A DNA stretch of 64,000 nucleotides, taken from NCBI GenBank assembly GCA_017390475.1, contig JAFPBO010000055.1:4133-68132 (forward strand), read 5' to 3'. Both the position numbers and the translations under genes were made by a program. Under the pieces are notes generated by a model. It saw only the letters and a program-made list of their open reading frames with translations, made no database searches and was not told where the DNA came from. Of the stretch, positions 2,702 through 46,128 are shown in pieces (position 1 is the stretch's first letter; each line of letters begins with the position of its first letter). The stretch comes from Loktanella sp. Its GTDB lineage: Bacteria > Pseudomonadota > Alphaproteobacteria > Rhodobacterales > Rhodobacteraceae.

Positions 2702-2718
2702 TCATAAGAGGTTTTGCC

Positions 2719-18188: not shown

Positions 18189-18254
18189 CCTCAGCTGAAC
18201 AATGGCCGGCCATAACGGCCGGTCATTTCCCTATCGCAAGTGGAGGTCACGCCC

Positions 18255-18770: not shown

Positions 18771-18772
18771 TA

Positions 18773-20520: not shown

Positions 20521-20544
20521 GCGGCAGGCCAGAAAGATAGAGAG

Positions 20545-23269: not shown

Positions 23270-23273
<4 letters not shown>
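21387..23273 (+). CDS. quiC: 3-dehydroshikimate dehydratase (TIM-barrel domain fused to an HPPD-like domain)
   Basis: 628 aa. The N-terminal xylose-isomerase-like TIM barrel and C-terminal VOC/4-hydroxyphenylpyruvate-dioxygenase-like half form the known QuiC/QsuB architecture. Located between aroE and the pca genes. Confidence 0.85.
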
Positions 23274-24372
<1,099 letters not shown>

Positions 24373-24373
24373 C

Positions 24374-24973: not shown

Positions 24974-24977
24974 GGTG

Positions 24978-32269: not shown

Positions 32270-33682
32270 CTAGAACATGTTGCGTCCAATCGACAAATAT
32301 TTACGTAACGCAATTCGATCGATCTTGGAGTGGTGTCGTCTGTCAAGCGGAATGGCTGATATGTTCCGCACCTTCTTGATCCCAAAGGCTGCGGCACCTC
32401 CGCGCCAGGTTTCCATATGTTTGGCATCGCCTTCAATCACCAGCACCGGCATTTGGTTCCGTTCGGTCAACGCGGCCCGCACTACCCCCGGCCACATCCG
32501 CGCTGCAGTCTCGATCGCGAAAGGATATTGCACGCCTTTGTCGGTCGTCACCTGATCCCCGACACGGCCCAGTAGCCACAGCCGTCCTTGATCGTCCAAC
32601 CGCCCTGCGTCACCTGTGCGGTGCCAGATCATGGCACCTTCATACACTTTGTTTTCTGCATCGCGTCTTGGATCAAGATAGCCTGTATTCACATGGTTTC
32701 CGGACACTTGAATTTCCATGTCCACAATCCGCAGACGTACAGCATCAACGGGGCGCCCGACGTACAGACCATAACCTTCTTCGGTGGAATTGGCATGCGC
32801 GATAGGCTCGGCCTCGGTCGAGCCATATACAGTGGTTACTTTGATGTTCTTGGTGATATTTTGTAGATTATGGACGACGTCCGGGAAGACCGGACCACCA
32901 CCTGTGAAGATGTGGCCAAGCGTTCCTGTTTCCCCGGCCTTGACCAGTTTTTCGCAAAGCGCGGGAGGCAGCAACGCGCGCGTGCAGTGATTGGCAGATA
33001 TCCAATTGACAAACGCCTTTGGCTCGAGCGAAGCCAGTCTGGACATCTTCCAGTTCGGCAGGACAGACGTCCGTCCTTCAGCCAGATTGATCAGCACGAA
33101 GACCGGGAAGGTCACAAGGTCAATTTCTGCAGTTTCGCTATGCAACAAAGGTGCGACCGCTTTCCATTGCGCCATCAAGAATGCATGCGTGCGGGGGATT
33201 GCCTTTGGTGTTCCGGTGGTGCCAGAGGTGAAGGAAATCAGGGCCAGACTGTCTGGGTCGGCGACGGGTTTATACGGCGCGGCCTTGCCATGTCTGTTCG
33301 GTGTCAGCAGTTTTATGCGCCAAAGGTCCGGCAGCAGCAGCTTAATTGCCTTGTACGGACCAGCCGCGCAAAAGAACTTGGGCTGTGTGGCTTTGATCGC
33401 GGTTCTGACCCCAGCCAACCCCATCGCTGGTTCCGGCAAAACGACAGTAGCGCCCAAAGACCAGAGCGCGGCAAGCGAGGCGTAAAGATCAACGCCGATC
33501 CCCATCGCGATCAACACCCGGTCGCCAGAGCGCACCCCTTTGGCATACCAGCCGGAGGCGTCGCTGTCGGCCATCCGCTGGACTTGCGAAAACCGGTAGG
33601 CGGTGCCGTCGGCATCAATCACCGCGGTCCGGTCGCGGTAATCAGCCGCGGCTTGCGCGAAGGCAGTGGAAAGGGTTGTCAC
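32270..33682 (-). CDS. AMP-dependent synthetase/ligase (ANL adenylating enzyme)
   Basis: ISFTSGTTGTPKAI (A3), YGSTEAEP (A5), TGDAGRLDDQGRLWLLGR (A7/A8) and SKIDR (A10 Lys). Last gene of the coupled operon. Confidence 0.85.
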   Translation of the reverse strand: MTTLSTAFAQAAADYRDRTAVIDADGTAYRFSQVQRMADSDASGWYAKGVRSGDRVLIAMGIGVDLYASLAALWSLGATVVLPEPAMGLAGVRTAIKATQPKFFCAAGPYKAIKLLLPDLWRIKLLTPNRHGKAAPYKPVADPDSLALISFTSGTTGTPKAIPRTHAFLMAQWKAVAPLLHSETAEIDLVTFPVFVLINLAEGRTSVLPNWKMSRLASLEPKAFVNWISANHCTRALLPPALCEKLVKAGETGTLGHIFTGGGPVFPDVVHNLQNITKNIKVTTVYGSTEAEPIAHANSTEEGYGLYVGRPVDAVRLRIVDMEIQVSGNHVNTGYLDPRRDAENKVYEGAMIWHRTGDAGRLDDQGRLWLLGRVGDQVTTDKGVQYPFAIETAARMWPGVVRAALTERNQMPVLVIEGDAKHMETWRGGAAAFGIKKVRNISAIPLDRRHHSKIDRIALRKYLSIGRNMF

Positions 33683-34521
33683 AAAGCGCGCCCCATCAAT
33701 GCATAGCGACGAAACACGTCCGCCCCATTCAACCCTGACCTGATAGCGGACAGGTTGTCGTCATGCATCAGCGCATGAATGGCGGTTTCAAACCCCATCA
33801 CTTTAGCGTTGAGGTAGAATTGATAAGACAGCCAGTGCCCCGCGCCCTTTTGCGTTGACGCATAGGTCTTCAGGATCACAGAGGTGGGTTCTGGCCCTTC
33901 CGCATAGTTTGGGATGCCGAACAGAAAGCCGACCAATGCGCCCGTCCCATCGCGGGCGAACAAGATCAAATCCTGTTTCAGCAATGGCACGACAGGGCGA
34001 TACATCGTCAGGAAATCAGCAAGGTCGATGTGTTTATAGAACGGGTTGCCCGCGAAAGCCGCGCAGGACAGATCATAGACTTGCGTGAAGAGCATATCAG
34101 GATCAGTGCCATCCCACGCCGACACCGTAAAGACGTCCGTGTCACGGGGTTTTGCACCAGGCAATTCGGACAACGGGGCAGAGGCTGAAAAGTAGGATGA
34201 GATCACGTCAAAACCTGCGGCCCTGAACGCCGCTGCATCATGATCGGCGCTGGCGGGTTCCATAAGGAAGGGCTGGTGCATGCCACGTTCGGAAATCAGG
34301 CGATAAGCGTGCCATGTATCGCCCTCCATCGGGCCGATCAGGGCGGTGGCCCCCTTGGATTTTGCAATGGCTGCCGCCTCAGCCAACAGACGCGCGCCAG
34401 CCTTGGCCGAGGAAAACTTGCATTTACCAACTGTCGCCACCTGTGAATGGTCATCCCAAACGGGGCCATCAAACCAAATGGTCAACTGTCCATCATTGGT
34501 CTTCAATGTCTGTGTATTCAT
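33679..34521 (-). CDS. GNAT-fold acyl-CoA N-acyltransferase-like protein
   Basis: The C-terminal half LILFARDGTGALVGFLFG...LKTYASTQKGAGHWLSYQFYLNAKVMGFE fits the GNAT beta4-alpha3 Q/R-x-x-G-x-G/A region. The N-terminal half is unassigned. The start was moved to ATG 34521 (ATGA overlap). Confidence 0.5.
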   Translation of the reverse strand: MNTQTLKTNDGQLTIWFDGPVWDDHSQVATVGKCKFSSAKAGARLLAEAAAIAKSKGATALIGPMEGDTWHAYRLISERGMHQPFLMEPASADHDAAAFRAAGFDVISSYFSASAPLSELPGAKPRDTDVFTVSAWDGTDPDMLFTQVYDLSCAAFAGNPFYKHIDLADFLTMYRPVVPLLKQDLILFARDGTGALVGFLFGIPNYAEGPEPTSVILKTYASTQKGAGHWLSYQFYLNAKVMGFETAIHALMHDDNLSAIRSGLNGADVFRRYALMGRAL

Positions 34522-35834
34522 ACAGCCATCACCTTTATGCCAAAGCTGCACAGCGGGACCACAAGTGCCAGCAGCGTCAGTTTCGCCGCACGATGCGTGT
34601 CGAAAACCGCGGGTTTGAGCGACCCGGCGATCACCATCGCGCCGATCACGATTGCACCTGTCACTGTCATATCACCGGGCCAGCGCACAGAAACAGGATT
34701 GAAAAGCATCAGAACCTGGTAGAGGCCAAACAACCCAAGCCCCAGCAGGGTTGCGGCGCCAACGCGAAGCCAGAACGGTCTTTGTCCCCAAGCAACACCG
34801 GCAAAGCCCACGCAAAGCCCGACTACCATCAGCCCATAATACATCAGCGCATTCGCTTCGGTGACCAATCCAAGCGCCAGCCAGCCAAAGCTAGCCAGTG
34901 CAAGAGCAGCAACGATATCAAGCGCTGGATAGGCCGCTTTGCAAGGGTTTCGTCGGTGCGCAATGGCGTGCATGATAAACACCAGCAGCGGAATAACTGT
35001 ATTCTGAGGGGCAGTCACCGAGATCAGCAAGAAGGTCGAGATGATGTAAACCCGTGCCGCATGGTTGGTGATCCCGAACTTTGGAGCGACGCGCATGAAT
35101 AGCACAATCGCAAACAAGAACATCCCGATCAGTGCGACCAGCTCCTGCCACTGGCTGTTCATATGGCTTTCAAGAAAGACCAGCAGGCCGGTAGGCAAAA
35201 AGAAATTGTCGAAACCCCGCCAGCTGTCCGCCTCGACTAAAGTGCCGAAGGATGCGACCATAACGGCAAGCAGGATGACATTGGGGCGGGAGACGTCCGA
35301 CAAAAGCAACAGACACACCATCGCAATCACAAGCGTGATCATGAAAAAAGCGACAGAGCCTTCGATCGATTTCTGGCCGTCTTCAACGGTAAAGAATTTT
35401 CGACCATAATGGCTGCCTGTCAAAGCCGCGGCGGCATCTGCCAGGGTCAAGGTCGCAATTGGAAGGATGTACAGGATTGCGTGCCCATCCGAGAGCAGGA
35501 ACGCCGTTCCGACCGCAAGCGCAAGAAGAAGATCACCATATGATTGCCGGTTCACGCCGTGCAATGTTGCGCCGATCCCCCCTTTGGAAAAGCTAGGCAT
35601 GCGCAAGATGCACATGACGATAAGTGTGAGCCCGACCAACATGAAAACCGGCCAGTCGTCGGTGAAAAGCCAGGGCAGGGTCAGCGCATAAAGCCCTGTG
35701 CCGATATGGACCAGTTTGCGTTGAACTTCGGTGGAAATGTCGTACGCGCTAGCAAGGCGTTTGACGCTTGCCATCAGCCCCAGCAGGACCGCCACAGATG
35801 CAAATGCGATTGCGATTTGCAGTGCCACGCTCAC
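34518..35834 (-). CDS. polytopic membrane protein: CTP-transferase family (CdsA / phytol-dolichol kinase-like) N-domain plus an uncharacterised C-terminal TM extension
   Basis: QRKLVHIGTGLYAL and LADAAAALTGSHYGRKFFTVEDGQKSIEGSVAFF match the G-D-x-x-A-x-x-x-G...K-S-x-E-G signature of PF01148-type enzymes. About 220 further residues are hydrophobic. Confidence 0.6.
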   Translation of the reverse strand: MSVALQIAIAFASVAVLLGLMASVKRLASAYDISTEVQRKLVHIGTGLYALTLPWLFTDDWPVFMLVGLTLIVMCILRMPSFSKGGIGATLHGVNRQSYGDLLLALAVGTAFLLSDGHAILYILPIATLTLADAAAALTGSHYGRKFFTVEDGQKSIEGSVAFFMITLVIAMVCLLLLSDVSRPNVILLAVMVASFGTLVEADSWRGFDNFFLPTGLLVFLESHMNSQWQELVALIGMFLFAIVLFMRVAPKFGITNHAARVYIISTFLLISVTAPQNTVIPLLVFIMHAIAHRRNPCKAAYPALDIVAALALASFGWLALGLVTEANALMYYGLMVVGLCVGFAGVAWGQRPFWLRVGAATLLGLGLFGLYQVLMLFNPVSVRWPGDMTVTGAIVIGAMVIAGSLKPAVFDTHRAAKLTLLALVVPLCSFGIKVMAV

Positions 35835-36934
35835 CCCTGAAATTCCTCGATTACGAAGTCGGAATAGAAAAAGGCTTTGTCCTTGGCTTTCAGACGGATT
35901 TCATTCTCGGTCAGGGTTGTCATCTGATCGGTAAAGGCAGGCGGGACACGCCGCTGTGCCATCATATTCCAATAGACAAGACGCGCCTTTGGATTTGCAG
36001 CGCTCAGGATCTGCCCGTAAACTTGGGCAAAGATGTTCGGGGACATGTATTCAAAAATATCCGACAGGTTAAACCCATCGGCCTTGTCGCCGTCATCAAT
36101 AAACGCCTCAAGCGCGCCTTGGCGAATGTCCAGCCGATCCAGTCGGTCGCGGATCGTCGTGTAGTGTTCGGCGCGCCAAGGCATCGGCACAGCATCGCCA
36201 TGTTTACCTTTCATGATCCAGTACAGATAGGGATTTTGCGACGGGTCACAATCGACCGCCGCATGCTTGATCCTGCGCGCGACATGTTGCGCTACAGAGC
36301 CTTGAACGTGATCAAAGAATGCCTTGTCTCGGCCCATCCGGCCCATCATGAAACGCGAAAAGAACAGATTGAGCAAAAGCCGCCAGCGCCATGTGTTGAA
36401 TCGCTGATCTAGAAATTTCTGTCGTTCGGCCTTGGGACGTGGAACGAAAATGTCGTCGATAGTCTTCCTCGAATGAACTAAAGGCAGTAGCTTTGTTCTG
36501 AAAATGCGGAAATAGCGTTCAAATTTACCAACCCCACCGGCGCCATAAGCAATGACATCATCACGTTGGTCTTGCCAGAATAGGCGCGTTTCCGAGTCGA
36601 TCTCGGCGATGGCCCGGTCCAGCAGCGCGCCACGCCGGGTGCTGGGGCGTGAACCCATCAATTCAAGGAATTCCGGTTGTGACAACGCGCGGTAAGCACC
36701 GATGCGCAGGCGCAGGCAGGCGATCTGGGCAGGCGACAGATCCACCACAACCACGCGCGCTGGGTCCAGTGTCAGCATCGCCAAAGCATTGTCGCCAGCC
36801 GAACAGATTGAAACAAGCGTTTTGTCTGGATCCTGAGGCAGTGCGGCACACAGAACATCCGCATCTTCCCACAATTGCGCATAACGGATGTGGTCGAAAT
36901 TTGCTTTTCCTGCGATTTCAGAGCTTTGCGTCAT
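35831..36934 (-). CDS. DUF3419 / BtaA-like (SAM:lipid 3-amino-3-carboxypropyl transferase family) protein
   Basis: IRYAQLWEDADVLCAAL...TLVSICSAGDNALAMLTLDPARVVVVDLSPAQIACLRLRIGAY matches my recollection of the BtaA/DUF3419 N-terminal signature. No btaB-like methyltransferase is nearby. Confidence 0.65.
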   Translation of the reverse strand: MTQSSEIAGKANFDHIRYAQLWEDADVLCAALPQDPDKTLVSICSAGDNALAMLTLDPARVVVVDLSPAQIACLRLRIGAYRALSQPEFLELMGSRPSTRRGALLDRAIAEIDSETRLFWQDQRDDVIAYGAGGVGKFERYFRIFRTKLLPLVHSRKTIDDIFVPRPKAERQKFLDQRFNTWRWRLLLNLFFSRFMMGRMGRDKAFFDHVQGSVAQHVARRIKHAAVDCDPSQNPYLYWIMKGKHGDAVPMPWRAEHYTTIRDRLDRLDIRQGALEAFIDDGDKADGFNLSDIFEYMSPNIFAQVYGQILSAANPKARLVYWNMMAQRRVPPAFTDQMTTLTENEIRLKAKDKAFFYSDFVIEEFQG

Positions 36935-39324
36935 GTCTTCGTCACCAGCCCTGTCGCCCCGTTCACAAGCAATGTTTCACCATCCTTGACCCACTGCGTC
37001 GCCCCCTTAAGCCCGACAACACATGGAATGCCCAATTCACGCGCGACGATGGCAGAATGGGACAAAAGCGACCCGCGCTCCACGACAATGGCGCTTGCGT
37101 TGGAAAACACAGCGATCCAGCCGGGGTCGGTGTGTCTGGCGACAAGAATATCGCCCGGGGACAGGCTTTCGGTACGTGGGTCGCGGATCACGCGGGCTTT
37201 GGCGGTTACTTGTCCGGCAGAACATCCGGTGGCGGTGCGCGTATCGCCGGTTTCGGTTGTTTGCATCACCGCATGAATCGTCGTGGCAGGCAGGATCGCA
37301 GGGCCGCGCACCTCAATCCGTTCAGGCGGGTCGTTGCGGGTGGCCGATGCTGCGTCTTCTGTCTGGCGCAGCTCGATCAGCCCGCGCAGGTTCGAGGACA
37401 ATCCGAACCCTTCAATCGCGCCCATGACTTCTGCGACGGTCAGATGAAATATATCGCGGGGTTGATCAATCAGGTCACGTGCAGCGAATTCACGGCCCAT
37501 GGACAGGAAAACCTGCCGCGCCCGACCAAACAGTCGTGTGCGTTCAAATCGTAGGTTTTCGCGGTCGCGCACACGCGCCTTGGCCCATCCGACAATCCAT
37601 TTCGCCAGCCGGGCCTTGACGGGTTTGCCCCGAAAAATCTTTGCCCAATCCGGTTCCGGTGCCACGATATGATCTGCCGGGGGGCGTTTGGCGCTTGCGG
37701 CAATGGCTGCGAAAAGCTGGGATGCATCCTCGGTCAAAGGAATGGATTCCAGCTTCAGTTCTTCAGTACAGCGGTCGCCGAATTTGGCAAGGTAGCTGGC
37801 CAATTCATCTTTCAGCGCCGGGTGGGTCCCGATCTGATCGGCGGGAATATCATGCTCTGCCGCGATACGACCCATTCTCGCGATCCGCTGTGCAGGTTCG
37901 GCCGAGACGATATCACCCTGCCCAATCATGACGTCATTGTGCAACATCAGTCCATCATCGCCCAGCCAATTTTCCAGCAGGTTCCGTGACGCGCCAAACG
38001 CGATCATGCACAGAAAATCATTGATCAAAGGAGCATCCCAACGGTCCAGCAAGGTGCTTTCGATGCGGCGATACTCGCTGGCAAGCTGTGTCAGGTTGGC
38101 GGTTTGTAGGTGAAGGTCGCTGTCCAGTGCTGCATTCAGGCGTGAATAGAAATTGCGCCGGGTTCGGGGGAGACGCATCGCCTCGAAAACCAACCGCGCG
38201 GCGACACCGGCGAGTTTGCCGTATTCCGTCACCTTTGCGAATCCCTTGGCAGGTGGCGGGCCGATATTGTCTGTAATCTCAGCGGGCATGGGCGTGTCGA
38301 CGCCCATCATGGTCTCCATATAGGCGCGGTTCAGCGAAAAACCGGGCAAATGCGCAAGCGCGCGGTACCAGTTGACGAGATTGTAGTAAACATGCCCATC
38401 AACGCGCCCCAGCATGTTGCCAAAAATTGCCGCATTTTCGGAGATGGTGGCTTCGCTCACGCCCAATAGCCGCACAAAGGATTGGTAGACGCGGTCGTAG
38501 ACATGCACCGCGAAACTGTAGGTCAGCGGCGATACCATCCCCGGGTAACTTTCGACAATATTGGAGTTATCGAATATAGTCAGTGCGTTGTCGGGCATTG
38601 CTATCGGTTTCAGTGCGGTCGTGATCGGGCGGGTTTGCAGGATATGCAGCCCATCCGCGTCAATCGCCCATTCGATATCTTGCGGACTACCAAATGCTGC
38701 TTCAGCCTTGCGCGCTATCTCGGCGATGCTGTTGATTTCGGCCTCCGACAGAATGGGGTCTGGCGGCGCGGTGACCGTGTCGGCGACCACCCAGCTTTGG
38801 CCGTCAACCTCGCCACTGACCAAGGCATCGCCAAGGCCCTCGGTCGCGGAGATGACCACGCAATCGCGTCGTCCGCTGACCGGGTCAGCGCTGAACGCGA
38901 TACCGGATACACGGGCGTCGATCATCTGCTGAACAACGATGGCCGGTGCTGCCGCACCACCCCCCGATTTGACCGCACGATAGGTGGTGACCGTCTCACC
39001 AAACCCCGAGGCCCAGACCTTCGCAGCGGCATCAACGACATTGCCCGCTTTGACATTCAGAAAGGTATCGAACTGGCCCGCGTGACTATGTTCCTGCCCG
39101 TCCTCGGCATGGCCAGAGGATCGCACCGCATAGGGGCCGGGGCCGATGGTTTTCAGCGCTTTGGTGACGGCAGTTTTCAGCCCACGCAGCGGTTTGCCAT
39201 CGGTAAATGCATCTGCCGGGATGACAAAGGATGCAGGCGGATTGAACCCGCATTTCGCAAGCCGGGCAAGGGACGCGCCTTTGCCACCTGCCTGCGCGGG
39301 ATCGGTGTTGTTGAACAAGATCAT
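36931..39324 (-). CDS. PEP-utilising-enzyme family dikinase with rifampin-phosphotransferase-like domain order
   Basis: N-terminal ATP-grasp (PPDK_N-like: GGKGASLARLAK...AVRSSGHAEDG). The swivel phospho-His domain sits at the extreme C-terminus (ILVARHTDPGWIAVFSNASAIVVERGSLLSHSAIVARELGIPCVVG). There is no C-terminal PEP/pyruvate TIM barrel. The start was moved to ATG 39324 (ATGA overlap). Confidence 0.8.
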   Translation of the reverse strand: MILFNNTDPAQAGGKGASLARLAKCGFNPPASFVIPADAFTDGKPLRGLKTAVTKALKTIGPGPYAVRSSGHAEDGQEHSHAGQFDTFLNVKAGNVVDAAAKVWASGFGETVTTYRAVKSGGGAAAPAIVVQQMIDARVSGIAFSADPVSGRRDCVVISATEGLGDALVSGEVDGQSWVVADTVTAPPDPILSEAEINSIAEIARKAEAAFGSPQDIEWAIDADGLHILQTRPITTALKPIAMPDNALTIFDNSNIVESYPGMVSPLTYSFAVHVYDRVYQSFVRLLGVSEATISENAAIFGNMLGRVDGHVYYNLVNWYRALAHLPGFSLNRAYMETMMGVDTPMPAEITDNIGPPPAKGFAKVTEYGKLAGVAARLVFEAMRLPRTRRNFYSRLNAALDSDLHLQTANLTQLASEYRRIESTLLDRWDAPLINDFLCMIAFGASRNLLENWLGDDGLMLHNDVMIGQGDIVSAEPAQRIARMGRIAAEHDIPADQIGTHPALKDELASYLAKFGDRCTEELKLESIPLTEDASQLFAAIAASAKRPPADHIVAPEPDWAKIFRGKPVKARLAKWIVGWAKARVRDRENLRFERTRLFGRARQVFLSMGREFAARDLIDQPRDIFHLTVAEVMGAIEGFGLSSNLRGLIELRQTEDAASATRNDPPERIEVRGPAILPATTIHAVMQTTETGDTRTATGCSAGQVTAKARVIRDPRTESLSPGDILVARHTDPGWIAVFSNASAIVVERGSLLSHSAIVARELGIPCVVGLKGATQWVKDGETLLVNGATGLVTKT

Positions 39325-40232
39325 GGCAGCCCTCCAAGGACGAGCGGCAGAAAGCCTGCAGTTGCATAACAGCCAAACACCCACAATCCTGCCAGCGTGT
39401 CCATCTGCTTTTCAGCTTTGACGGTCGGGGCGGCGGCGTAACGGCGTGCCGCGAAGCTGCAGACCAGCAAGCCACTAAGGCTGATCAAGCAAAAAGCAAT
39501 CGCAAAACCTGCAGCGATGCCGACGCCGATCACCAATCCGGCGGATATACCTACAAAGACAAGCCAGATGTTGGCGGCGCGTTTTGGTCCCCAGAGGCCG
39601 GAATAGGTATCCACCCCGACCCGTTCATTTTCGACAGCCCAAAGCTTGCGGCCTATTTCTAGCACACACCCGTTCGAGAATGACAAGGCAATAAACAGCC
39701 AGAGCGCAGGTGCGGCTGATCCATGCGGCAACCATTCGATCCCGGTCAGCATCAGGTCGATCAGCGGCATGATTGCCATATGCGACAATAGATAAAGCAC
39801 CGGGCGTGCCTTGAGCCATACCGGGACGCCGAATTCGAACGTCATCGCCCCAAGCCACGCCCATGTCAGCAATAGCAGCCAGATTAGGCCCGCACCGTGC
39901 AGCAACGCTAGGACGATGCCCAAAGGTATGGTCACGACCCCAAGCAGGACAATCAGGCGCAGCGTCACCAAACCACGCGGAATTGGCCGTTCGGGGCGGT
40001 ACTTTGCATCGTCTTCCCCGTCTTTCACCTCGTCTGCAACACGCAGTTGGAAGAACAGAAAAAACACCAGCAGAAAGCCAACGATATATGCCGATAGGTC
40101 CGGCAGGGAACGGTCGGACAGAACGGCAGATATTGTGATAGAAGCCGCAGAAAAACACGCTAGAAGCGGCACGGTTTTCACCAAGGGGAACCGTTCAGCC
40201 TGATAAATCCACAAACGCTGTGCGAGGGTCAT
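39321..40232 (-). CDS. UbiA-superfamily prenyltransferase
   Basis: 303 aa with about eight TM helices. First Asp-rich motif RVADEVKDGEDDAKYRPERPIPRGLV. The second loop EIGRKLWAVENERVGVDTYSGLWG resembles the UbiA second motif region. Confidence 0.7.
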   Translation of the reverse strand: MTLAQRLWIYQAERFPLVKTVPLLACFSAASITISAVLSDRSLPDLSAYIVGFLLVFFLFFQLRVADEVKDGEDDAKYRPERPIPRGLVTLRLIVLLGVVTIPLGIVLALLHGAGLIWLLLLTWAWLGAMTFEFGVPVWLKARPVLYLLSHMAIMPLIDLMLTGIEWLPHGSAAPALWLFIALSFSNGCVLEIGRKLWAVENERVGVDTYSGLWGPKRAANIWLVFVGISAGLVIGVGIAAGFAIAFCLISLSGLLVCSFAARRYAAAPTVKAEKQMDTLAGLWVFGCYATAGFLPLVLGGLP

Positions 40233-41494
40233 CTGAACCGTGCCAGGTTTTCATGGGCGCGGGTGAAATCCCCCGCAGCGATTGCAGCAACAATAGATAT
40301 TTCACCGCAAAGACACAGGGCTGCCGTTACCTCGGCCAGCGCACCACCTTTGCCCGGCCCTTTGAGGCCCAGAATGTTTAGTCCGGCACACTGGCTGGCA
40401 AGGCCAGTGCCACCGCCCACCGATCCGACAAGGATGTTGGGCATGGTCACGGAACAGAACAGATCGTCGCCGCGCGCCTCCATCCGGGTGAAACCTACGG
40501 CACTTTCGGCAACGCACGCCGCGTCCTGACCTGTGGCAATGTAAAGTGCGGCAAGCCCGTTGGCATAATGCGCCTGCGCGCCCATCTGTCCCGAAAGTTT
40601 GGCACCCAGATCGGCAATGCGCCCGTAGGCCAGCATGTCTTGCGCCGTTGTCCCAAGGGTGTTTGCGATGATCGCAGCGGGCAACACGACAGAAGCACTG
40701 ACCTTGCGCCCGCGCCCCGTCATCAGACCAAGGGCAGAGGCTTTTTTATCGCCGGAAAAGTTTCCCTCGATATACCAACGGTTGATCGGCACAGTGCAAT
40801 CTGCAGCGATCTTTTCGCATAATGCATGGGTCGCAATCGTGACCATATTCTGCCCCGCCGCGTCGCCGGTGGTATAGCGGCAGATCAGGAACACGACGTC
40901 ATTGTCGATGACCGGTTCAACCGAGGTCAGCTTGCCATATTGCGTGGTGCTTTCGGCGACTTTGCGTAAGTCACTGATATTGTTGGCGACCCATTCAACA
41001 AACAGGCCAGAGTTCAAGATATTGTCAAAGGTGAAAGCAGGCGTTCGGATTACGCCTTCGTATAAAACTGCGGTGCTGATGCCGCCTGCTTTGGTCGCGG
41101 CATATGCACCGCGCCCGTATGACGCCACCAGCGCCGCCTCGGTCGTAGCAAGGGGAATGTGGTAATCGCCAGCGGCATTTATGCCGTTCAGACGCAGTGG
41201 ACCAATGACGCCTACAGGGACTTTGACGGTTCCGATAAAGTTTTCGATGTTGCCAGAATAATCTGCGGCAGCGGCAAGGGTTGCAGGATCCGCAATCTGG
41301 TCGCGATCAGCAGCCGAGGCTGGCCCGATGAGTCGATCCCAATATCGCAACACACTTTGTTCAGAGGCAATGCGTACTGGACGCAACGTGCGAAAAGGTG
41401 CGTTACGGGCCGCCATCTGCAAACGCAATTTTTCTGGCGTGAATTTTTCACGCAGCCTCGTCAGCATCGCTTGCACATGTGCTGGAATGGTCAT
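40229..41494 (-). CDS. hydroxymethylglutaryl-CoA reductase (class I-like) homologue
   Basis: ENFIGTVKVPVGVIGPL, LATTEAALVASYGRGA, TGDAAGQNM, GNFSGDKKAS, VGSVGGGTGL and the C-terminal GDFTRAHENL correspond to the conserved HMGR blocks, including the catalytic Glu, Asp, Lys and His regions. Confidence 0.85.
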   Translation of the reverse strand: MTIPAHVQAMLTRLREKFTPEKLRLQMAARNAPFRTLRPVRIASEQSVLRYWDRLIGPASAADRDQIADPATLAAAADYSGNIENFIGTVKVPVGVIGPLRLNGINAAGDYHIPLATTEAALVASYGRGAYAATKAGGISTAVLYEGVIRTPAFTFDNILNSGLFVEWVANNISDLRKVAESTTQYGKLTSVEPVIDNDVVFLICRYTTGDAAGQNMVTIATHALCEKIAADCTVPINRWYIEGNFSGDKKASALGLMTGRGRKVSASVVLPAAIIANTLGTTAQDMLAYGRIADLGAKLSGQMGAQAHYANGLAALYIATGQDAACVAESAVGFTRMEARGDDLFCSVTMPNILVGSVGGGTGLASQCAGLNILGLKGPGKGGALAEVTAALCLCGEISIVAAIAAGDFTRAHENLARFR

Positions 41495-41496
41495 GG

Positions 41497-41769
41497 TTAT
41501 TTCCCCGCAGATTGGTGCAATGCCTTGCGGTTCATATACACCTGTTCGAGCGCATCACGCTTAGCTAGGATGGGACATGTTTCACCGAAAACCTTCATAC
41601 GGAACACGTCACCAAAGCGGTCGACCTGATCAAAATTGGTGCCGCAAGGGTCCAGCCCAAAACTGAGGGTTTTCCCAATGAACGGTATCGTGCGCGGCCC
41701 CGGGAGATGCCCAAGGTCTGGATGAGCAAACCGGGCCTCGGCTGCCGTCATGGTTTCTAGGACCGTCAC
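41497..41769 (-). CDS. 90-aa ORF resembling only the N-terminus of a cytochrome P450
   Basis: LPGPRTIPFIGKTLSFGLDP...FDQVDRFGDVFRMKVFGETCPILAKRDALEQVY fits the P450 Pro-rich hinge and first beta-sheet region. There is no I-helix or heme-Cys region. The stop lies 2 nt before the HMGR start. RBS aagga precedes GTG 41769. Confidence 0.4.
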   Translation of the reverse strand: MTVLETMTAAEARFAHPDLGHLPGPRTIPFIGKTLSFGLDPCGTNFDQVDRFGDVFRMKVFGETCPILAKRDALEQVYMNRKALHQSAGK

Positions 41770-42252
41770 AATAGTCGTTTCCTTGTTCGCTTTAGGCGAT
41801 ACCCAAAAATTGAACGGTGCTCAATGTCAGCGGGTCCGTACCTTTTGGGATCAACGGTAGTGGCGCGATGCTGCTCAGGCAAACAAAAGAACTTCATGCT
41901 GACCCGCCAGAACAATCAAAGTAAAGAGAATATCCGGATCAGATTGTTGCGTTACGCGGGGCTGCTTGGGATTATCGTTGTGAAAGGACTGCTGATATGT
42001 GCAGCAAACAGCCGTTTCGTTGACGAGTTCTTTGGCTTGGCCGCCGGAAAGCAACGCCCAATGGGCATCGGTTGGCTGAGAAGACCTATCCTGCAGCTGT
42101 TCAAGACGATCAGCTCTCATCAAAAGAGCATGAAGAGCGGAAACCAGCCTGAAGCCGCAGCCGCGTTTTTCGACAGTATCAGCCCATCATGAATCGTGCT
42201 TCAATCACTGTGAATGATCGCCTTTACCGCCTCGCAAGTGTTGGAAAAACCG

Positions 42253-43674
42253 TTACCCATCGATCAGCGATTCTGGGTTAGCCAGCAAGTGGTTCAAGTC
42301 TGACATGGCTTTTAGGAAGAGGACATCGGATGCGCATGTATTTATGGCCAGTCGCACTGCATTTGGGGCATTGCAATTCGGCAACGCAAATTCATCGGCG
42401 GGCTTGATCAGAATATCACGTTTTTCGCATGCCATGGCAAAGCCGGATGCACGCCATCCCTGCGGCATATTCAAATATACGAACGGCGCATCTTCTCGCC
42501 ATCGTAAATCCCAAGCCCCAAGAGCATTGACCGCCAGCCGCGCTCGCCTTGCGGTCTCTGCTATAACGCGATCACGAATTTCGAAGGCTGCGCCGCTCGT
42601 AATCAATTCGTGGCACAAATCTAGGATTGGCTGCGCCACCCCATAAAACGAGCTTTGCGCAACTTGCCGCAGTTCTTTCTCACGCCCAACGGGGGCAATG
42701 GCGTATCCAAACCGCAACGCCCCGCTGACTGACTTTGTCAGCGACGAAACAAGGTAGCTCTGGTCGGGCAGTATCGAGCGATAGCTGGGAATGTCGCTTG
42801 AGGCCGTGGTATGACAATCATCTTCGATGATTGTGATGTCCAATTGACGCGCGATTTGCGCTAACTCTTGTTTACGCGCGAGGCTGGTACGGATCGTCGT
42901 CGGGCTATGCACTTCGGCCGCGGTCAGCAGAATGCGACCACCGTGATCGCGGCAGGCCTGCCTGAAAAATTCCGGCAGAATACCTTCATCATCCATCGGC
43001 AGACCAACAGTTTGTGCGCGAAGCAAGCGTGCAGCATGACGCGTACCGGGGTAGCCCAGTTCCTCTGTCATGATGATTGGGTGCTGACCGCTCAGTTCGG
43101 CCTGTAGCGCCAGGATGCAGCAGTTTTGTGCCCCATTCCCCAAAACAATACTCTCAGGCTCAACCCCGCCTGACCGCGCTTGGTCCACCCAAGACGCGAC
43201 AGCAGCGCGTGCTTCGAAGTCAGTTTCCGCCGTCGGGTAGTTAATATGACGACGCCGGTGGCTTTCACCCTGCTTGATCAGGGCAGCGTCTATTATCTGA
43301 CCCTGCCCGACATCAGGCACACGGCTACTGCGAAAATCTGCAACCGCATCGACCGGCAAGTTCACCAAAGGGGTCACGCGCTCGGTTTTTGCCGCACGTC
43401 CCGCTGCAACGAAGGTGCCGCGACCCACCTCTGCCCGAAGACGCCCTTCTTCGGTCAGCAAGGTATAGGCCCGCGCGACAGTGCCCGGCGTTACCTTCAC
43501 GCGGAAGGCAAGATCACGCACGGGGGGTAGTTTCATTCCAGGTACAAGATGTCCTGCTGCGATGCCGTCACGAATGGCTTGAGCCAGCGCTTTGTACTTG
43601 GATTTCCCTGAAATCGGCAGGTGAGGTTGCCAAATTGTACTGGTCACAATCATTTTGTATCCCTCATATGCCAT
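42253..43674 (-). CDS. MocR-type regulator (GntR wHTH fused to a PLP aminotransferase-fold domain)
   Basis: The N-terminal wHTH KYKALAQAIRDGIAAGHLVPGMKLPPVRDLAFRVKVTPGTVARAYTLLTEEG is followed by an about 350-aa class I/II aminotransferase fold with SLTKSVSGALRFGY (PLP Lys). Confidence 0.85.
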   Translation of the reverse strand: MAYEGYKMIVTSTIWQPHLPISGKSKYKALAQAIRDGIAAGHLVPGMKLPPVRDLAFRVKVTPGTVARAYTLLTEEGRLRAEVGRGTFVAAGRAAKTERVTPLVNLPVDAVADFRSSRVPDVGQGQIIDAALIKQGESHRRRHINYPTAETDFEARAAVASWVDQARSGGVEPESIVLGNGAQNCCILALQAELSGQHPIIMTEELGYPGTRHAARLLRAQTVGLPMDDEGILPEFFRQACRDHGGRILLTAAEVHSPTTIRTSLARKQELAQIARQLDITIIEDDCHTTASSDIPSYRSILPDQSYLVSSLTKSVSGALRFGYAIAPVGREKELRQVAQSSFYGVAQPILDLCHELITSGAAFEIRDRVIAETARRARLAVNALGAWDLRWREDAPFVYLNMPQGWRASGFAMACEKRDILIKPADEFALPNCNAPNAVRLAINTCASDVLFLKAMSDLNHLLANPESLIDG

Positions 43675-43738
43675 CTATTGTATTCCTACATTGTGCTTTA
43701 TTCAATATTGTGTCAATACAATGCAAAGAGATACCTCC

Positions 43739-43966
43739 ATGTCACCATCGCTTCACGCAGCCCAGATTGCGCTTCTTAACGACCAGGCGCGCCTTCCGTC
43801 AGTGGCATATGTCTTGATCACCATGGCTGTCATGGTAACAAAATGGGATCGGTATCGGCGTACGCGTAAAGCTTTGAGTGGCCTCGAGCCGCATCTTTTG
43901 GAGGATGTCGGTCTCACCCGCGAAGCCGCATACAACGAAGCGAGAAAGCCTTTCTGGAAAGACTAA
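43739..43966 (+). CDS. DUF1127 small protein
   Basis: TKWDRYRRTRKALSGLEPHLLEDVGLTREAA matches the DUF1127 core (W..R.R.R..L..L.D..L.D.GL.R). Alternative ATG at 43721. Divergent from the MocR gene. Confidence 0.7.
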   Translation: MSPSLHAAQIALLNDQARLPSVAYVLITMAVMVTKWDRYRRTRKALSGLEPHLLEDVGLTREAAYNEARKPFWKD

Positions 43967-44124: not shown

Positions 44125-46128
44125 CTAACCCGCCCGGCCCGCAGCCCAGCTTTTGCGCCCCATCGCAGCGATCCGCGCTATTTGTTCATCAGGCACCTGT
44201 ACCACCGTAGCAGGCGACGGCAGAACGTCATCGTGGAACAAATAAAGCCGGGCAGCGAATTCCTCAAACAAAAGCGAGCCTTCTCCAAAACGCTCGCCAG
44301 CACCGCTGGTCGAGACAATCACACCATGGCCCCAATCCTGCCCGCTGTCATTGTTCGGGTTGAAAAAGTAAACACGCGTATGGCCATCCTGGTCCAGCCC
44401 GGCCCGGATCAGCGTGATCGCATGCCAGCCGACAAAGGTGCCGGTGGCGTCAGTCACCGCGATCCCGGCGGGCTGCGGATGGATCACGGGTTGATTGCCA
44501 TTGTGCAGCGGATGATAGGACGCGTGGAAGGCGCGCAGGAAATCTTCGTACTCCTTCAGGGCACCGGTGGCCACATCGACCGCGATGTGAAAGGCGCGCC
44601 CGACCCACCAGCCGTGCAGTTCGGGGTTGATCCAGCGGTGCGGGTCTTCGGACCTGCCGATACAGCGGCGGCCCATCTCGGCATAGGCGCGATCAAGATG
44701 CGGCACCAACAGCACCGATACAGGATCGGCATCCAGCAACGCGGATGTCGCAAGGCCGGGCGGCAAAGTGGCCGTATCCAGCGGCTCACCTTCGAAATGC
44801 AGCACCAGCCGGTCACCACGTGTGATCTGCGCGATCAGCCAGAGGAGGTAATCAGGATCGTTCAGCGCCCACATCGACAGGGCACGTGCGGATTGGCAGG
44901 TTGGGTTATTGCCCTGACCTACACCCAAAGGCTGGCCTAACAACATCAGCACCCCGGCGACCAGATGTGTTTTTGCAGGCAGCAACGTGCCGCAAGACGC
45001 GCCCAAGGCGCTGGTGCAATCTTCGCTCAGCGGTGTTTCCAGCAATCGCCACAATGATGGCGCGATGGGTGGGGAGTAAAGGATGCCACGTTCCAGCATC
45101 AGCGCCAGACCGTAAACCGCCTGTGCGGTGCCGGGCTGGATAGCGGCATCGACCATGCCGTAGACGAGCGATTCATAACAGCGCAGCGCATCCAGACCGG
45201 TGGTGGATAAACCCAATGCATGGGGCAACATCCGCGCGTGATCAGCATCCAGCGTCCAGCGCAGAAATGCCGCATGATAATCCGACACGAGCCCGGTATC
45301 ATGCATGGCACGCGCAAGCGCATAGGCTTCATCCTGAATGGCCCGTTCATCCGCGCGCGACAGGCGGTTGATATAAACAGCAATGCCCGGATCATCCCGG
45401 CACAGGGTTGCCGGCCCAAAAAGGGCGCTGATCAACCTGTCTGCTCCAAGATGGGCATCGGCGGCATTCGTGCTACCACTCTGCAAGGCCTGTGCGATCT
45501 GCACAACCATTCCCTTCACATGATCAACCTGCAACGGGCGCTGCGCCATGATCCGCCAGACTTCATCGATCAGGTGATCCAGAATGCCATCTGGCCCCAG
45601 CTCCTGCATCAAATAGCGCATCAGTCGGTCAACCGCTGGTGTCAGCGGTCCCTGTGCATTGCGCTGTGCTTCATCCGCAGCCTGACCCAGAAGCCGATCC
45701 AGATTGAGAGCAAGAACCTGCGTCAGAAATTGTTTCGCCTGCTCAGCCAGCAGTCCGGGATTGGCGTGATCGCCGGTAGCAGCCACCAGAAAGCGCAGCA
45801 GACTCATCGCCTCCAGTGTGATCGTGGCAGGTGCGGCATGGGTCAACGTCTGTTTGACAAGACTTGGCTGCAGATTGGTGGGGCAGGCCCAGTCGCTGCC
45901 GGAAAATAGGCCAGCCTGATCCATCACGCCTATGCGCTGGCGCAATGCAGGCAAACCCTCCTCATGTTCCAGCACCCGGCGGGCCACTTCGAGCACGCGC
46001 AATGCGTGATCGGACTTACCGATCCGCGATGCACCATCCAAATGGATAATCTGCCGGTCCAGCCGGTCCAGAAGTGCTTGCAGGTTGGCTGTCGCGCTCT
46101 TTGACGTTGTTTTTTCGGCTTCGACCAC
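44125..46128 (-). CDS. hypothetical 667-aa protein with a C-terminal calpain/papain-like cysteine peptidase signature
   Basis: GQ(405)GNNPTC(411)QSARALSMW has Gln six residues before Cys. VGWH(569)AITLI and VYFFN(590)PNNDSGQDWG follow. The N-terminal about 380 aa are helical and unassigned. GTG start. Confidence 0.55.
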   Translation of the reverse strand: MVEAEKTTSKSATANLQALLDRLDRQIIHLDGASRIGKSDHALRVLEVARRVLEHEEGLPALRQRIGVMDQAGLFSGSDWACPTNLQPSLVKQTLTHAAPATITLEAMSLLRFLVAATGDHANPGLLAEQAKQFLTQVLALNLDRLLGQAADEAQRNAQGPLTPAVDRLMRYLMQELGPDGILDHLIDEVWRIMAQRPLQVDHVKGMVVQIAQALQSGSTNAADAHLGADRLISALFGPATLCRDDPGIAVYINRLSRADERAIQDEAYALARAMHDTGLVSDYHAAFLRWTLDADHARMLPHALGLSTTGLDALRCYESLVYGMVDAAIQPGTAQAVYGLALMLERGILYSPPIAPSLWRLLETPLSEDCTSALGASCGTLLPAKTHLVAGVLMLLGQPLGVGQGNNPTCQSARALSMWALNDPDYLLWLIAQITRGDRLVLHFEGEPLDTATLPPGLATSALLDADPVSVLLVPHLDRAYAEMGRRCIGRSEDPHRWINPELHGWWVGRAFHIAVDVATGALKEYEDFLRAFHASYHPLHNGNQPVIHPQPAGIAVTDATGTFVGWHAITLIRAGLDQDGHTRVYFFNPNNDSGQDWGHGVIVSTSGAGERFGEGSLLFEEFAARLYLFHDDVLPSPATVVQVPDEQIARIAAMGRKSWAAGRAG

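Follow-up and report, generated by a model that had tools for sequence, protein, structure and literature searches.

A seven-gene cluster with a probable FcrA-type reductase as a candidate operon for a fatty-alcohol-based lipid in several bacterial phyla

FcrA, reported in 2025 and tested experimentally, is a fatty acyl-CoA reductase that acts on C4-C18 acyl-CoA and not on HMG-CoA, and it is discriminated from HMGR by the substitutions Ser684→Glu, Lys735→Ala and Leu862→Phe (PMC11948995). The bulky residue at the Leu862 position was proposed to exclude branched chains, and some members of the FcrA clade may accept smaller substrates (PMC11948995). The enzyme was found in the context of wax-ester synthesis, and fcrA is frequently present without WS/DGAT (PMC11948995).

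A gene with this signature opens the intact part of a tightly packed cluster in the window, the whole 64,000-nucleotide stretch of Loktanella sp. DNA analysed here. Its product retains the catalytic residues E119, K250, D324 and H414, and residues E243, A294 and F410 are the counterparts of Ser684, Lys735 and Leu862 in hHMGR. All 73 orthologues carry the Glu and Phe substitutions, and in every one of them the Lys735 position is occupied by a small residue, Ala or Ser. The original prediction had named the protein an HMGR homologue; homology through PF00368 holds, but identity as an HMG-CoA enzyme was rejected on the FcrA signature and a TIGR00533 score of 298, under the cut-off of 442. Because all three FcrA substitutions are present, the enzyme probably yields a fatty alcohol rather than mevalonate, which would shift the entry of the pathway from isoprenoid-type chemistry to fatty alcohols.

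Eight genuine open reading frames run on the minus strand from 41769 to 32270 with no true intergenic space, as had been predicted (Table 1). They do not make up the eight-gene operon proposed with them: the region is seven intact genes with a P450 stump as its first ORF. This ORF was rejected as an eighth gene and is a truncated P450 start, as judged by blastn and by its identity to relatives. It weakly matches the N-terminal part of the P450 family (PF00067 positions 2-62, E = 0.2). In loci L003-L006 the P450 gene is full-length (458 aa), and its beginning shares 62-64% identity with the stump; the intact copy in Yoonia maricola lies at L003:2900-4276, and in blastn the window lacks about 1.2 kb corresponding to L003 3146-4341. 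The expected 2-nt spacing was seen between the stop of the stump and the ATG at 41494. Six further junctions had been described as ATGA overlaps; all six are 4-nt start/stop overlaps, but only four read ATGA (40229-40232, 39321-39324, 36931-36934 and 34518-34521), those at 35831-35834 and 33679-33682 being GTGA.

Table 1. Features of the cluster and its upstream region, in window coordinates.
Feature	Position	Strand	Details
DUF1127 gene	43655-43966	+	PF06568, E = 1.2e-10; ~1.9 kb upstream of operon
MocR-type gene (GntR + aminotransferase domains)	42253-43674	-	ends 483 bp upstream of operon
Non-coding stretch upstream of operon	41770..42252	.	483 bp
P450 stump (first ~85 codons + short new tail)	41497..41769	-	90 aa; pseudogene or leader ORF
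HMGR-fold protein with FcrA signature	40229..41494	-	PF00368, 1.8e-101
UbiA-superfamily integral membrane transferase	39321..40232	-	303 aa; PF01040, 1.5e-15, above cut-off
RPH/PigC-like phosphohistidine dikinase	36931..39324	-	797 aa; PPDK_N 2.1e-47, PEP-utilizers 4.1e-26
DUF3419 protein, BtaA family of SAM-binding enzymes	35831..36934	-	367 aa; PF11899, 4.6e-59
Polytopic membrane protein (MEM)	34518..35834	-	438 aa; GTG start
Tandem-GNAT acyltransferase	33679..34521	-	280 aa; AF2 fold
ANL adenylating enzyme or acyl-CoA ligase	32270..33682	-	470 aa; GTG start; PF00501, 1.4e-39

The promoter presumably lies within the non-coding stretch, where no ORF with a family match and no Rfam match was found. 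A sigma-70-like site (42214-42186, minus strand) does not outscore shuffled controls, and the stretch is not conserved among relatives. Both the MocR and the DUF1127 genes had been placed about 480 bp upstream, which is correct for the former but not for the latter.

The family calls made from the sequence alone for PF00368, PF01040, PF01326 with PF00391, PF11899 and PF00501 all score above Pfam's own cut-offs. The UbiA protein reaches no NCBIfam subfamily cut-off and has no named subfamily; its sole solved sequence relative is the DGGGP synthase 6m31 (E = 0.001), and its motif D67-E-x2-D71-x3-D75...R79-P-x-R-P-I-P-x-G is unchanged in 79 homologues. The dikinase, which would be 817 aa long if translated from an alternative GTG at 39384, shows no PEP/pyruvate-binding TIM-barrel domain in a Pfam scan and best matches the Listeria rifampin phosphotransferase 5fbs in the PDB (8.5e-51), with PF27448 (Rph_4th) present in its orthologues. 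Its His756, in the LLSHSAIVARELGIP loop, is kept in 84 of 85 homologues, the remaining one having a gap. The homologues of the DUF3419 protein all keep its SAM-type motifs, ICSAGDN and VVVDLS, and the earlier BtaA-like call is right as to family (PF11899) but not as to orthology: rhizobial DUF3419 proteins are about 25% identical to it from end to end, and at most 37% over part of the length, and the protein is, by sequence comparison, a paralogue and not an orthologue of BtaA-type and rhizobial DUF3419 proteins.

The assignment of MEM to PF01148 was not reproduced: Pfam, NCBIfam, PDB-sequence profile and Foldseek searches returned no match, and a comparison of MEM with E. coli CdsA by hhalign did not recover the relationship either. 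The source label “phytol kinase” is alone in pointing towards that family. The AF2 model of MEM is all-helical (pLDDT 80), and the protein belongs to a family of 3379 representative clusters at E ≤ 1e-3; its invariant residues all fall in the N-terminal ~220 residues, the C-terminal ~210 forming variable helices, and R39-K40-x2-H43, D133-x6-G140 and K155-S-x-E-G-S are unchanged in 88 homologues. For the 280-aa protein, a tandem-GNAT fold is supported by its AF2 model (pLDDT 89), the top Foldseek PDB matches being tandem GNATs (E ~1e-11, TM ~0.6), among them MAB_4324 (7q3a), MshD (1ozp/2c27), GlcN N-acetyltransferase (5kf1) and the clavulanate tandem GNAT (2wpw). The predicted GNAT membership is thus borne out by fold, though the Pfam scan of the window protein gave no hit; distant orthologues do match PF00583, and the G226-x-G228 loop is conserved. 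In the ANL enzyme the A10 lysine (K453) and the SGTTGxPK sequence of motif A3 are conserved, and among NCBIfam models it scores best against NF006754, “fatty acid CoA ligase family protein” (3.1e-80, under the cut-off of that model).

The same gene set recurs across phyla, a point that the original prediction had proposed to check. An identical seven-gene order was found at 76 distinct loci, with Rhodobacteraceae and Chelativorans among the carriers, and overlaps of -4, -1 or -8 nt prevail at each junction; the cluster is also present in an Armatimonadaceae genome, in Brevibacillus laterosporus, at a locus adjoining a Spore_YtfJ gene and at one with PSCyt2/PSD1/DUF1501 neighbours. In metagenomes the order is kept in 25 of 27 loci with enough flank. 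Because the order recurs in this way and overlaps prevail, the neighbourhood is more than a chance juxtaposition, and its preservation across phyla at GC contents of 0.31-0.72 implies horizontal transfer. Active-site motifs are conserved for all seven proteins (79-88 homologues). A pattern-limited genome scan gave 116 hits in 185,579 species genomes, mostly Rhodobacteraceae; in Roseinatronobacter the cluster is carried on a plasmid, and flanking genes vary by locus. The dikinase is fused to the DUF3419 protein in L173 and MEM to GNAT in P0251, a DUF3419-MEM-GNAT trio stands alone in a cyanobacterium, and the other six genes are kept without FcrA at three loci, two from metagenomes and one from a genome. 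The cluster is often accompanied by a P450, either alone or together with a sulfotransferase, and a P450 and Sulfotransfer_3 pair adjoins it at about 22 loci of Rhodobacteraceae as well as at the Spore_YtfJ-flanked locus. These P450s are closest to the terpenoid-acting CYP170A1, CYP97 and CYP175, CYP51 and CYP120.

Based on sequence, we tentatively read the seven genes as a translationally coupled operon for a fatty-alcohol-based lipid and as a horizontally mobile unit in several phyla, giving this just short of an even chance. The ANL enzyme would turn a fatty acid into acyl-CoA, which the FcrA-type reductase would reduce by four electrons to a fatty alcohol; these two steps alone have a direct precedent, and those from phosphorylation onward we infer. 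Next, the conserved N-terminal domain of MEM and/or the RPH-like dikinase, the latter through phospho-His756, would phosphorylate the alcohol or a lipid that contains it; a kinase role of MEM is suggested by motifs and source labels. In one lineage a PAP2 phosphatase gene is attached to the cluster, which counts in favour of a phosphorylated intermediate. The UbiA-family enzyme would then join a lipid diphosphate to a hydroxyl, the DUF3419 enzyme would add the 3-amino-3-carboxypropyl (homoserine) group of SAM, with no BtaB-type methyltransferase to follow, and the tandem GNAT would acylate the resulting amine with acyl-CoA. In many relatives a P450, often with a sulfotransferase, would hydroxylate and sulfate the product; since the P450 is deleted in the window, the product would be untailored there. 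Since the diphosphates that UbiA enzymes usually ionise are allylic, one with a saturated alkyl chain would serve poorly as donor, and the chain attached at this step may instead be an ordinary prenyl. A prenyl tail would likewise suit the terpenoid-type accessory P450s more than an alkyl one, and the prenylated, ether-type, decorated lipid originally predicted is still plausible. The literature searched gave no description of the cluster and no assigned product, in keeping with the earlier statement that the combination matches no textbook pathway.

The same chemistry could have another product fate, namely a secreted specialised metabolite, surfactant-like or signalling and sulfated in some strains, rather than a structural membrane lipid. 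The patchy spread, the plasmid location, the implied horizontal transfer, the varying flanks and the variable tailoring genes, with a P450 decayed in the window, all agree with such a product, but we consider it somewhat unlikely, given that no conserved exporter was found in the cluster in five neighbourhoods and that, of the seven proteins, two (MEM by model, UbiA by family) are enzymes integral to the membrane. That FcrA and ANL serve ordinary wax-ester or storage-lipid synthesis, with the other five genes an unrelated adjoining module, would accord with the context in which FcrA was first known and with the three loci without it. This is very improbable, however, as FcrA and ANL enclose those five genes with overlapping stop and start codons at 76 loci, WS/DGAT is absent from the Pfam families listed for the neighbourhoods examined, and fcrA often occurs without WS/DGAT elsewhere.

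Two isoprenoid routes share the “phytol kinase” label of MEM and the terpenoid-acting P450s as arguments. An archaeal-type prenyl lipid, made by a reductase acting on an HMG-CoA-like or isoprenoid thioester and activated by a CTP-dependent PF01148 enzyme, would also accord with PF00368 and PF01040 in one operon and with the DGGGP synthase relationship, but the FcrA-style exchange of three HMG-binding residues in all 73 orthologues, the low score against the curated HMGR model, the failure of every PF01148 test and the gene tables of five neighbourhoods, in which no G1P dehydrogenase, GGGP synthase or polyprenyl synthase was noticed, make it quite improbable. Many Rhodobacteraceae associate with algae, and carriers in the genome scan come mostly from this family, which is consistent with salvage of an isoprenoid acid or alcohol (algal material derived from phytol, for instance) that is reduced, phosphorylated twice and passed to the UbiA enzyme, two phosphotransfer-type enzymes being present beside it. 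Salvage is nevertheless about equally improbable: the Phe at the Leu862 position is invariant and would exclude branched chains if the proposal for FcrA holds (PMC11948995), the cluster also occurs in Brevibacillus, Armatimonadaceae and metagenome contigs, and DUF3419 and GNAT, the most tightly linked genes, are left with no role.

Compared with known systems, the salvage route would mirror plant phytol recycling. In plants this proceeds through VTE5, VTE6 and then VTE2 or chlorophyll synthase. For the fatty-alcohol-based lipid that we tentatively prefer, the likeness lies in single enzymes: the reductase shares all three discriminators of FcrA, the dikinase has the domain architecture and catalytic His of RPH, and the nearest solved relative of the UbiA-family enzyme, DGGGP synthase, is ether-forming.

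Our ORF reading of the window places eight ORFs head to tail on the minus strand between 41769 and 32270, and the original prediction joined all eight in one operon. Judged from the sequence, the operon consists of seven intact genes, because about 1.2 kb of a P450 gene has been deleted and only a stump of it is left as the first ORF. Against the P450 profile, this 90-aa ORF aligns with no more than the opening ~60 positions (E = 0.2). In the closest relatives (loci L003-L006, L003 being Yoonia maricola), the reductase gene is immediately preceded, on its own strand, by an intact 458-aa P450 gene, whose product begins with the same residues as the 90-aa ORF. By blastn, window 41783-41524 pairs with the first ~250 bp of the relatives' P450 gene and the alignment picks up again at the reductase start codon, with L003 3146-4341 (~1.2 kb) having no counterpart in the window. 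The deletion also took the original spacer that precedes the reductase gene and is common to L003, L054 and L007. Since its first ORF is a P450 stump, the eight-gene operon is rejected.

The stump may now serve as a translationally coupled leader ORF. The 2-nt gap noted at the first junction is present, between the TAA of the first ORF and the ATG at 41494. This ATG is new, the relatives starting the gene with GTG, and a GGGGA is seen ~8 nt upstream of it (window 41494-41783). Six further overlaps had been read as ATGA; six 4-nt start/stop overlaps do exist when the junctions are read on the minus strand, but only four are ATGA (40229-40232, 39321-39324, 36931-36934 and 34518-34521), the other two being GTGA (35831-35834 and 33679-33682). 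The family scans took in ~25 of the window's ORFs, and the predicted families PF00368, PF01040, PF01326 with PF00391, PF11899 and PF00501 were all matched in the Pfam scan.

Features of the operon and of its surroundings in the window
Feature	Coordinates	Strand	Remarks
Autotransporter, 1079 aa	28653-31892	-	directly downstream of operon; endonuclease/exonuclease/phosphatase passenger and PATR repeat
ANL enzyme	32270-33682	-	PF00501, 1.4e-39
280-aa protein (GNAT)	33679-34521	-	Pfam: none; tandem-GNAT fold
438-aa membrane protein (MEM)	34518-35834	-	family match: none in any test
DUF3419 protein	35831-36934	-	PF11899, 4.6e-59
RPH-like dikinase	36931-39324	-	PF01326, 2.1e-47; PF00391, 4.1e-26
UbiA-superfamily protein	39321-40232	-	PF01040, 1.5e-15
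FcrA-type reductase (candidate)	40229-41494	-	PF00368, 1.8e-101
MocR-type gene	42253-43674	-	GntR and aminotransferase domains; ends 483 bp upstream of operon
DUF1127 gene	43655-43966	+	diverges from MocR gene; ~1.9 kb from operon
667-aa ORF	44125-46128	-	Pfam: none at E <= 0.001; adjoins 46271-47497
408-aa ORF	46271-47497		only a sub-threshold ATP-grasp_4 match

A MocR regulator and a DUF1127 gene had both been placed about 480 bp upstream of the operon, a distance that holds for the former but not for the latter. MocR is ruled out as a dedicated regulator of the operon, because the genes flanking the cluster differ in every lineage. Promoter-like and terminator-like sites were no more frequent than in shuffled sequence, Rfam families were found neither in the window nor upstream of the operon, no k-mers were common to 71 upstream regions, and the window's DNA upstream of the operon is not conserved in relatives. 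A catabolic-looking block at 18773-27657, with a TRAP DctM transporter, a shikimate dehydrogenase, a BKACE enzyme, an alpha/beta hydrolase, a Lyase_1 enzyme and a xylose-isomerase-like TIM barrel fused to an HPPD-like domain, appears unrelated to the operon. The AT-skew extremes of the window (-0.24 at 18001-20000 and +0.18 at 34001-36000) coincide with genes for integral membrane proteins, namely DctM on the plus strand and the 438-aa MEM on the minus strand.

The presumed HMGR homologue is, going by its residues, probably an FcrA-type fatty acyl-CoA reductase. FcrA enzymes are HMGR-like proteins that reduce C4-C18 acyl-CoA to alcohols, not HMG-CoA, and are told apart by Glu for Ser684, a small residue for a salt-bridging Lys and a bulky one for Leu862 (PMC11948995, ISME J 2025). 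The best alignments of the window protein are with class-I HMGR structures (6hr7, 7.7e-75; human 1dq8, 1.2e-49), and the human catalytic residues Glu559, Lys691, Asp767 and His866, numbered as 1dq8 chain index + 421, correspond to its E119, K250, D324 and H414, which are invariant among 73 orthologues that include Armatimonadaceae, Chelativorans and one Granulosicoccaceae MAG. Human Ser684, Lys735 and Leu862 are replaced by E243, A294 and F410, and the orthologues carry Glu (73/73), Ala (71) or Ser (2), and Phe (73/73) at these positions. With all three HMG-binding residues replaced and a score of 297.9 against TIGR00533, the curated HMGR equivalog, which lies under the cut-off of 441.8, a canonical HMG-CoA reductase (EC 1.1.1.34) is rejected. 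Section 19 of PMC11948995 prints the salt-bridging residue of human HMGR as 'Lys795'; counted from the 1dq8 alignment, 795 is a Cys, and the printed number is probably a misprint for Lys735, the residue aligned with the substitution.

With FcrA the window protein shares its PF00368 fold, the complete set of four catalytic residues, the changes of Ser684 to Glu, Lys735 to a small residue and Leu862 to a bulky aromatic one, and the presence of an acyl-CoA ligase gene within the same cluster. Unlike FcrA, the window protein has neither an N-terminal alkyl-carrier (Lad) domain nor an ACP domain, its bulky residue at the Leu862 position is Phe and not Trp, and its neighbours are UbiA, dikinase, DUF3419, MEM and GNAT rather than WS/DGAT, AGPS or PlsC-like genes.

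The seven genes belong together well beyond this genome. A pattern-based genome scan, with one genome per species, gave 116 MEM relatives, and the 80 that were kept are nearly all from Rhodobacteraceae or Paracoccaceae, with Chelativorans salis and a Granulosicoccaceae MAG in addition. On contigs long enough, the genes stand in one order on one strand, the sole exception being locus L015, which has no reductase gene. The same order is found in the distant carriers L083, L085 (an Armatimonadaceae genome), L086 (GC 0.72) and L091, in L090, where the cluster adjoins a Spore_YtfJ gene, and on a contig with PSCyt2/PSD1/DUF1501 neighbours. Brevibacillus laterosporus B9 (locus L088; NZ_CP011076.1 459508-478590) holds the seven genes, with a P450 gene immediately downstream, at a GC content of 41.6%. 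Its 1.38-Mb record is filed as a plasmid, and the PLSDB table for it has 16 features in all, none of them in the cluster stretch. Of the 80 metagenome loci, 27 are flanked by enough sequence, and in 25 of these the seven genes are collinear on one strand, at GC contents of 0.31-0.72. Junction overlaps of -4, -1 or -8 nt dominate across 76 distinct loci, and each of the seven proteins keeps its predicted active-site motifs among 79-88 homologues. The recurring order, the overlaps and the metagenome loci rule out a chance juxtaposition, and the neighbourhood survey proposed with the original prediction accordingly finds the gene order recurring across phyla. The cluster is a mobile unit: it lies on a 137-kb plasmid in Roseinatronobacter sp. 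S2, and its flanking genes vary among lineages. Cultured carriers include Roseovarius nubinhibens ISM, Yoonia maricola DSM 29128, several Ruegeria and Paracoccus strains and B. laterosporus B9.

Three of the enzymes could be placed with differing precision. A profile of the 280-aa protein against PDB sequences returned noise only, and the fold search alone succeeded. The AlphaFold2 model, built from 18 homologues (pLDDT 89), has MAB_4324, MshD, GlcN N-acetyltransferase and the clavulanate tandem GNAT as its best PDB matches in Foldseek (E ~1e-11, TM ~0.6). Distant orthologues match PF00583 directly, and the acyl-CoA pyrophosphate-binding loop G226-x-G228 is conserved in homologues. The tandem fold and this loop bear out the GNAT call for a window protein that itself has no Pfam match. 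The ANL enzyme carries a complete A3 motif (SGTTGxPK) and the A10 lysine K453, both conserved, and its best NCBIfam match is a fatty-acid-CoA-ligase model. The dikinase is built of PF01326 (ATP-grasp, PPDK_N) and PF00391 alone, the PEP/pyruvate-binding TIM barrel being absent; its phosphohistidine His756 is conserved among homologues, PF27448 (Rph_4th) is present in orthologues, and the best solved relative is the Listeria rifampin phosphotransferase 5fbs (8.5e-51). It resembles RPH and the prodigiosin ligases PigC and RedH in combining ATP-grasp, Rph_4th and a swivelling His domain without the TIM barrel, and in its conserved catalytic His. Unlike them, it scores far under the equivalog cut-offs (RPH 246 against 999 and PigC 251 against 1300; PEP synthase, at 620 against 883, is not reached either), its gene lies inside a lipid operon, and it is sometimes fused to DUF3419, as in locus L173.

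The predicted assignment of the polytopic MEM to PF01148 (CTP_transf_1, the family of CdsA, dolichol kinase, phytol kinase and Dgk1) did not survive. MEM has no Pfam match even at E <= 10 and none in NCBIfam, and neither 13 family members nor 10 distant ones gave a Pfam match. Its profile found nothing among PDB sequences, Foldseek of its model (pLDDT 80) against the PDB gave a best E-value of 0.85, and hhalign against E. coli CdsA returned a probability of 0.1. With no similarity in sequence or fold detected, MEM is not placed in PF01148; only its motifs and the labels 'phytol kinase' and 'diacylglycerol/polyprenol kinase family' from JGI, UniRef and NCBI hint at that family. The invariant residues all fall within the N-terminal ~220 (R39-K40-x2-H43, D133-x6-G140 and K155-S-x-E-G-S), in motifs that may resemble those of the CTP-dependent Dgk1/Sec59/VTE5 lipid kinases. 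For kinases of that family, Han et al. (PMC2459266) describe a catalytic Asp that is conserved and a short motif common to the members. An exhaustive profile search puts the MEM family at 3379 representative clusters at E <= 1e-3 and 723 at E <= 1e-30, and Pfam has no model for it.

The UbiA protein scores 57.7 against PF01040 (cut-off 34.2); its first Asp-rich motif, D67-E-x2-D71-x3-D75, is invariant in homologues, and its second motif is Glu-rich (E203-x2-G-V-[DE]-T-Y-S). No named subfamily in NCBIfam (DGGGPS, MenA, UbiA, ChlG, EboC and others) was reached, the best score being 59 against a cut-off of 443. Of the solved structures, archaeal DGGGP synthase 6m31 alone shows detectable similarity in sequence, which is weak (E = 0.001 over ~80 residues) and spans the R-P-x-R-P-L-P-x-G segment as well as the first Asp-rich motif. 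The window protein differs from DGGGP synthase in having D-E-x2-D-x3-D instead of N-D-x2-D-x3-D and in its Glu-rich second motif, and genes for G1P dehydrogenase, GGGP synthase and CarS were not noticed in the cluster neighbourhoods read closely. The DUF3419 protein shares its family and SAM-binding motifs, which are invariant among homologues, with the BtaA/BtaB pathway to DGTS, and its predicted chemistry is that expected of BtaA, the transfer of a 3-amino-3-carboxypropyl group to a lipid. Compared with rhizobial DUF3419 proteins, it is ~25% identical along its whole length and at most 37% identical in a partial alignment, and the gene tables read around cluster copies hold no BtaB methyltransferase, the only neighbouring methyltransferase seen being of the UbiE type, in locus L092. 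At ~25% identity, and with a BtaB-like gene absent from those tables, both BtaA orthology and a BtaB partnership are rejected, and the dikinase-DUF3419 fusion in L173 has no parallel in DGTS synthesis.

Variants of the cluster may indicate how its parts divide. In locus L173 (5988-10004), which has no reductase gene, the dikinase (PPDK_N and PEP-utilizers) is fused to DUF3419 in a 1338-aa protein, and the metagenome protein cluster P0251 (722 aa; Acetyltransf_6, E = 0.0024) is a natural MEM-GNAT fusion. A Coleofasciculaceae cyanobacterium (L084:8825-12420) has the DUF3419-MEM-GNAT trio alone, between two-component sensor genes, which suggests that the trio is a self-sufficient head-group module. 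Because of the two fusions and this trio, the data suggest that DUF3419, MEM, GNAT and dikinase form a head-group core, and that FcrA, ANL and UbiA supply the tails. In L092, the set is split into ANL-UbiA-dikinase and FcrA-DUF3419-MEM, and the GNAT gene is absent. Locus L157 also has no reductase gene; a PLD-like gene and a class-3 lipase gene are seen there upstream of the UbiA gene (2235-4318). Accessory genes occur as well. A Sulfotransfer_3 and P450 pair adjoins the cluster in L090 and in ~22 loci from Rhodobacteraceae; carriers of the sulfotransferase include Aliiroseovarius crassostreae (L001) and Thalassococcus halodurans (L019). A second P450 type, of which the window keeps a decayed copy, lies upstream or downstream of the cluster in other loci. 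On the PSCyt2/PSD1/DUF1501 contig (JGI 3300047160), ANL is followed immediately, on the same strand, by genes for a PAP2_3 phosphatase and a P450. The nearest relatives of both P450 types act on terpenoids (CYP170A1, CYP97 and CYP175 for one, CYP51 and CYP120 for the other), and to that extent would favour a prenyl tail for the product.

A candidate order of reactions can be drawn from these assignments. The ANL enzyme would make acyl-CoA, which the FcrA-type reductase would turn into a fatty alcohol, both steps having precedent. The N-domain of MEM, the RPH-like dikinase or both may then phosphorylate the alcohol or a lipid carrying it; the UbiA enzyme would form an ether link, DUF3419 would add an aminocarboxypropyl group from SAM, the tandem GNAT would acylate the amine, and the P450, with or without the sulfotransferase, could tailor the tail where present. 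One weak point of the scheme is the donor, since saturated alkyl diphosphates serve UbiA enzymes poorly; others are the P450 relatives favouring a prenyl tail and the putative role of MEM. In full, the proposal, to which we give a rather low probability, is that of an undescribed bacterial pathway in several phyla, in which a new membrane-kinase family and an RPH-like dikinase would convert FcrA alcohols into activated alkyl phosphates or diphosphates, UbiA-type ether bonds would follow, and the product would receive a SAM-derived, N-acylated homoserine cap and, in many strains, a far-end sulfate through P450 and sulfotransferase.

That the operon makes a new lipid class is unproven, and the chance is a real one. 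A search of the literature outside subscription journals yielded the FcrA paper (PMC11948995) and found no paper on the cluster and no product assigned to it, in keeping with the original prediction that no textbook pathway matches. Each enzyme family is known; the gene combination and the product would be new, in a lipid biosynthetic operon fed by FcrA. The discoverers of FcrA, a type of reductase first recognised in 2025, note that fcrA often occurs without a wax-ester synthase and may feed ether-lipid synthesis, and that many FcrA lie outside wax-ester synthesis in unknown pathways; UbiA and Rhodobacteraceae go unmentioned in their paper (PMC11948995). The operon offers a concrete, conserved and testable candidate pathway for such reductases. 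A DUF3419 paralogue and a membrane protein family without a Pfam model would also gain a biochemical context from it, and it would widen the known uses of RPH-like dikinases and bring in a divergent UbiA enzyme. Should the product be a new ether or amino lipid, it would bear on bacterial membrane adaptation and on the interpretation of lipid biomarkers.

Two known systems offer parallels to the proposed scheme. In Mycobacterium tuberculosis, the P450 Cyp128 and the sulfotransferase Stf3, whose genes are neighbours, make sulfomenaquinone, the end of the lipid tail being hydroxylated and then sulfated. The Sulfotransfer_3 and P450 genes beside many cluster copies recall this arrangement, and the pair is absent from the window, where just the stump of a different P450 type remains. 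In plant phytol salvage, the kinases VTE5 and VTE6 act in turn, followed by the UbiA-family VTE2 or chlorophyll synthase. The succession proposed here, from lipid alcohol to phosphate to diphosphate to UbiA-type transfer, would be the same, and MEM carries the source label 'phytol kinase', whereas homology of MEM to VTE5 was not detected with the methods used, the second phosphotransferase would be an RPH-like dikinase instead of a VTE6-type kinase, and the predicted alcohol is a straight-chain fatty alcohol. If true, the proposed pathway would lead to a new class of ether amino-lipid and would represent a fatty-alcohol version of both the archaeal and the phytol-salvage logic.
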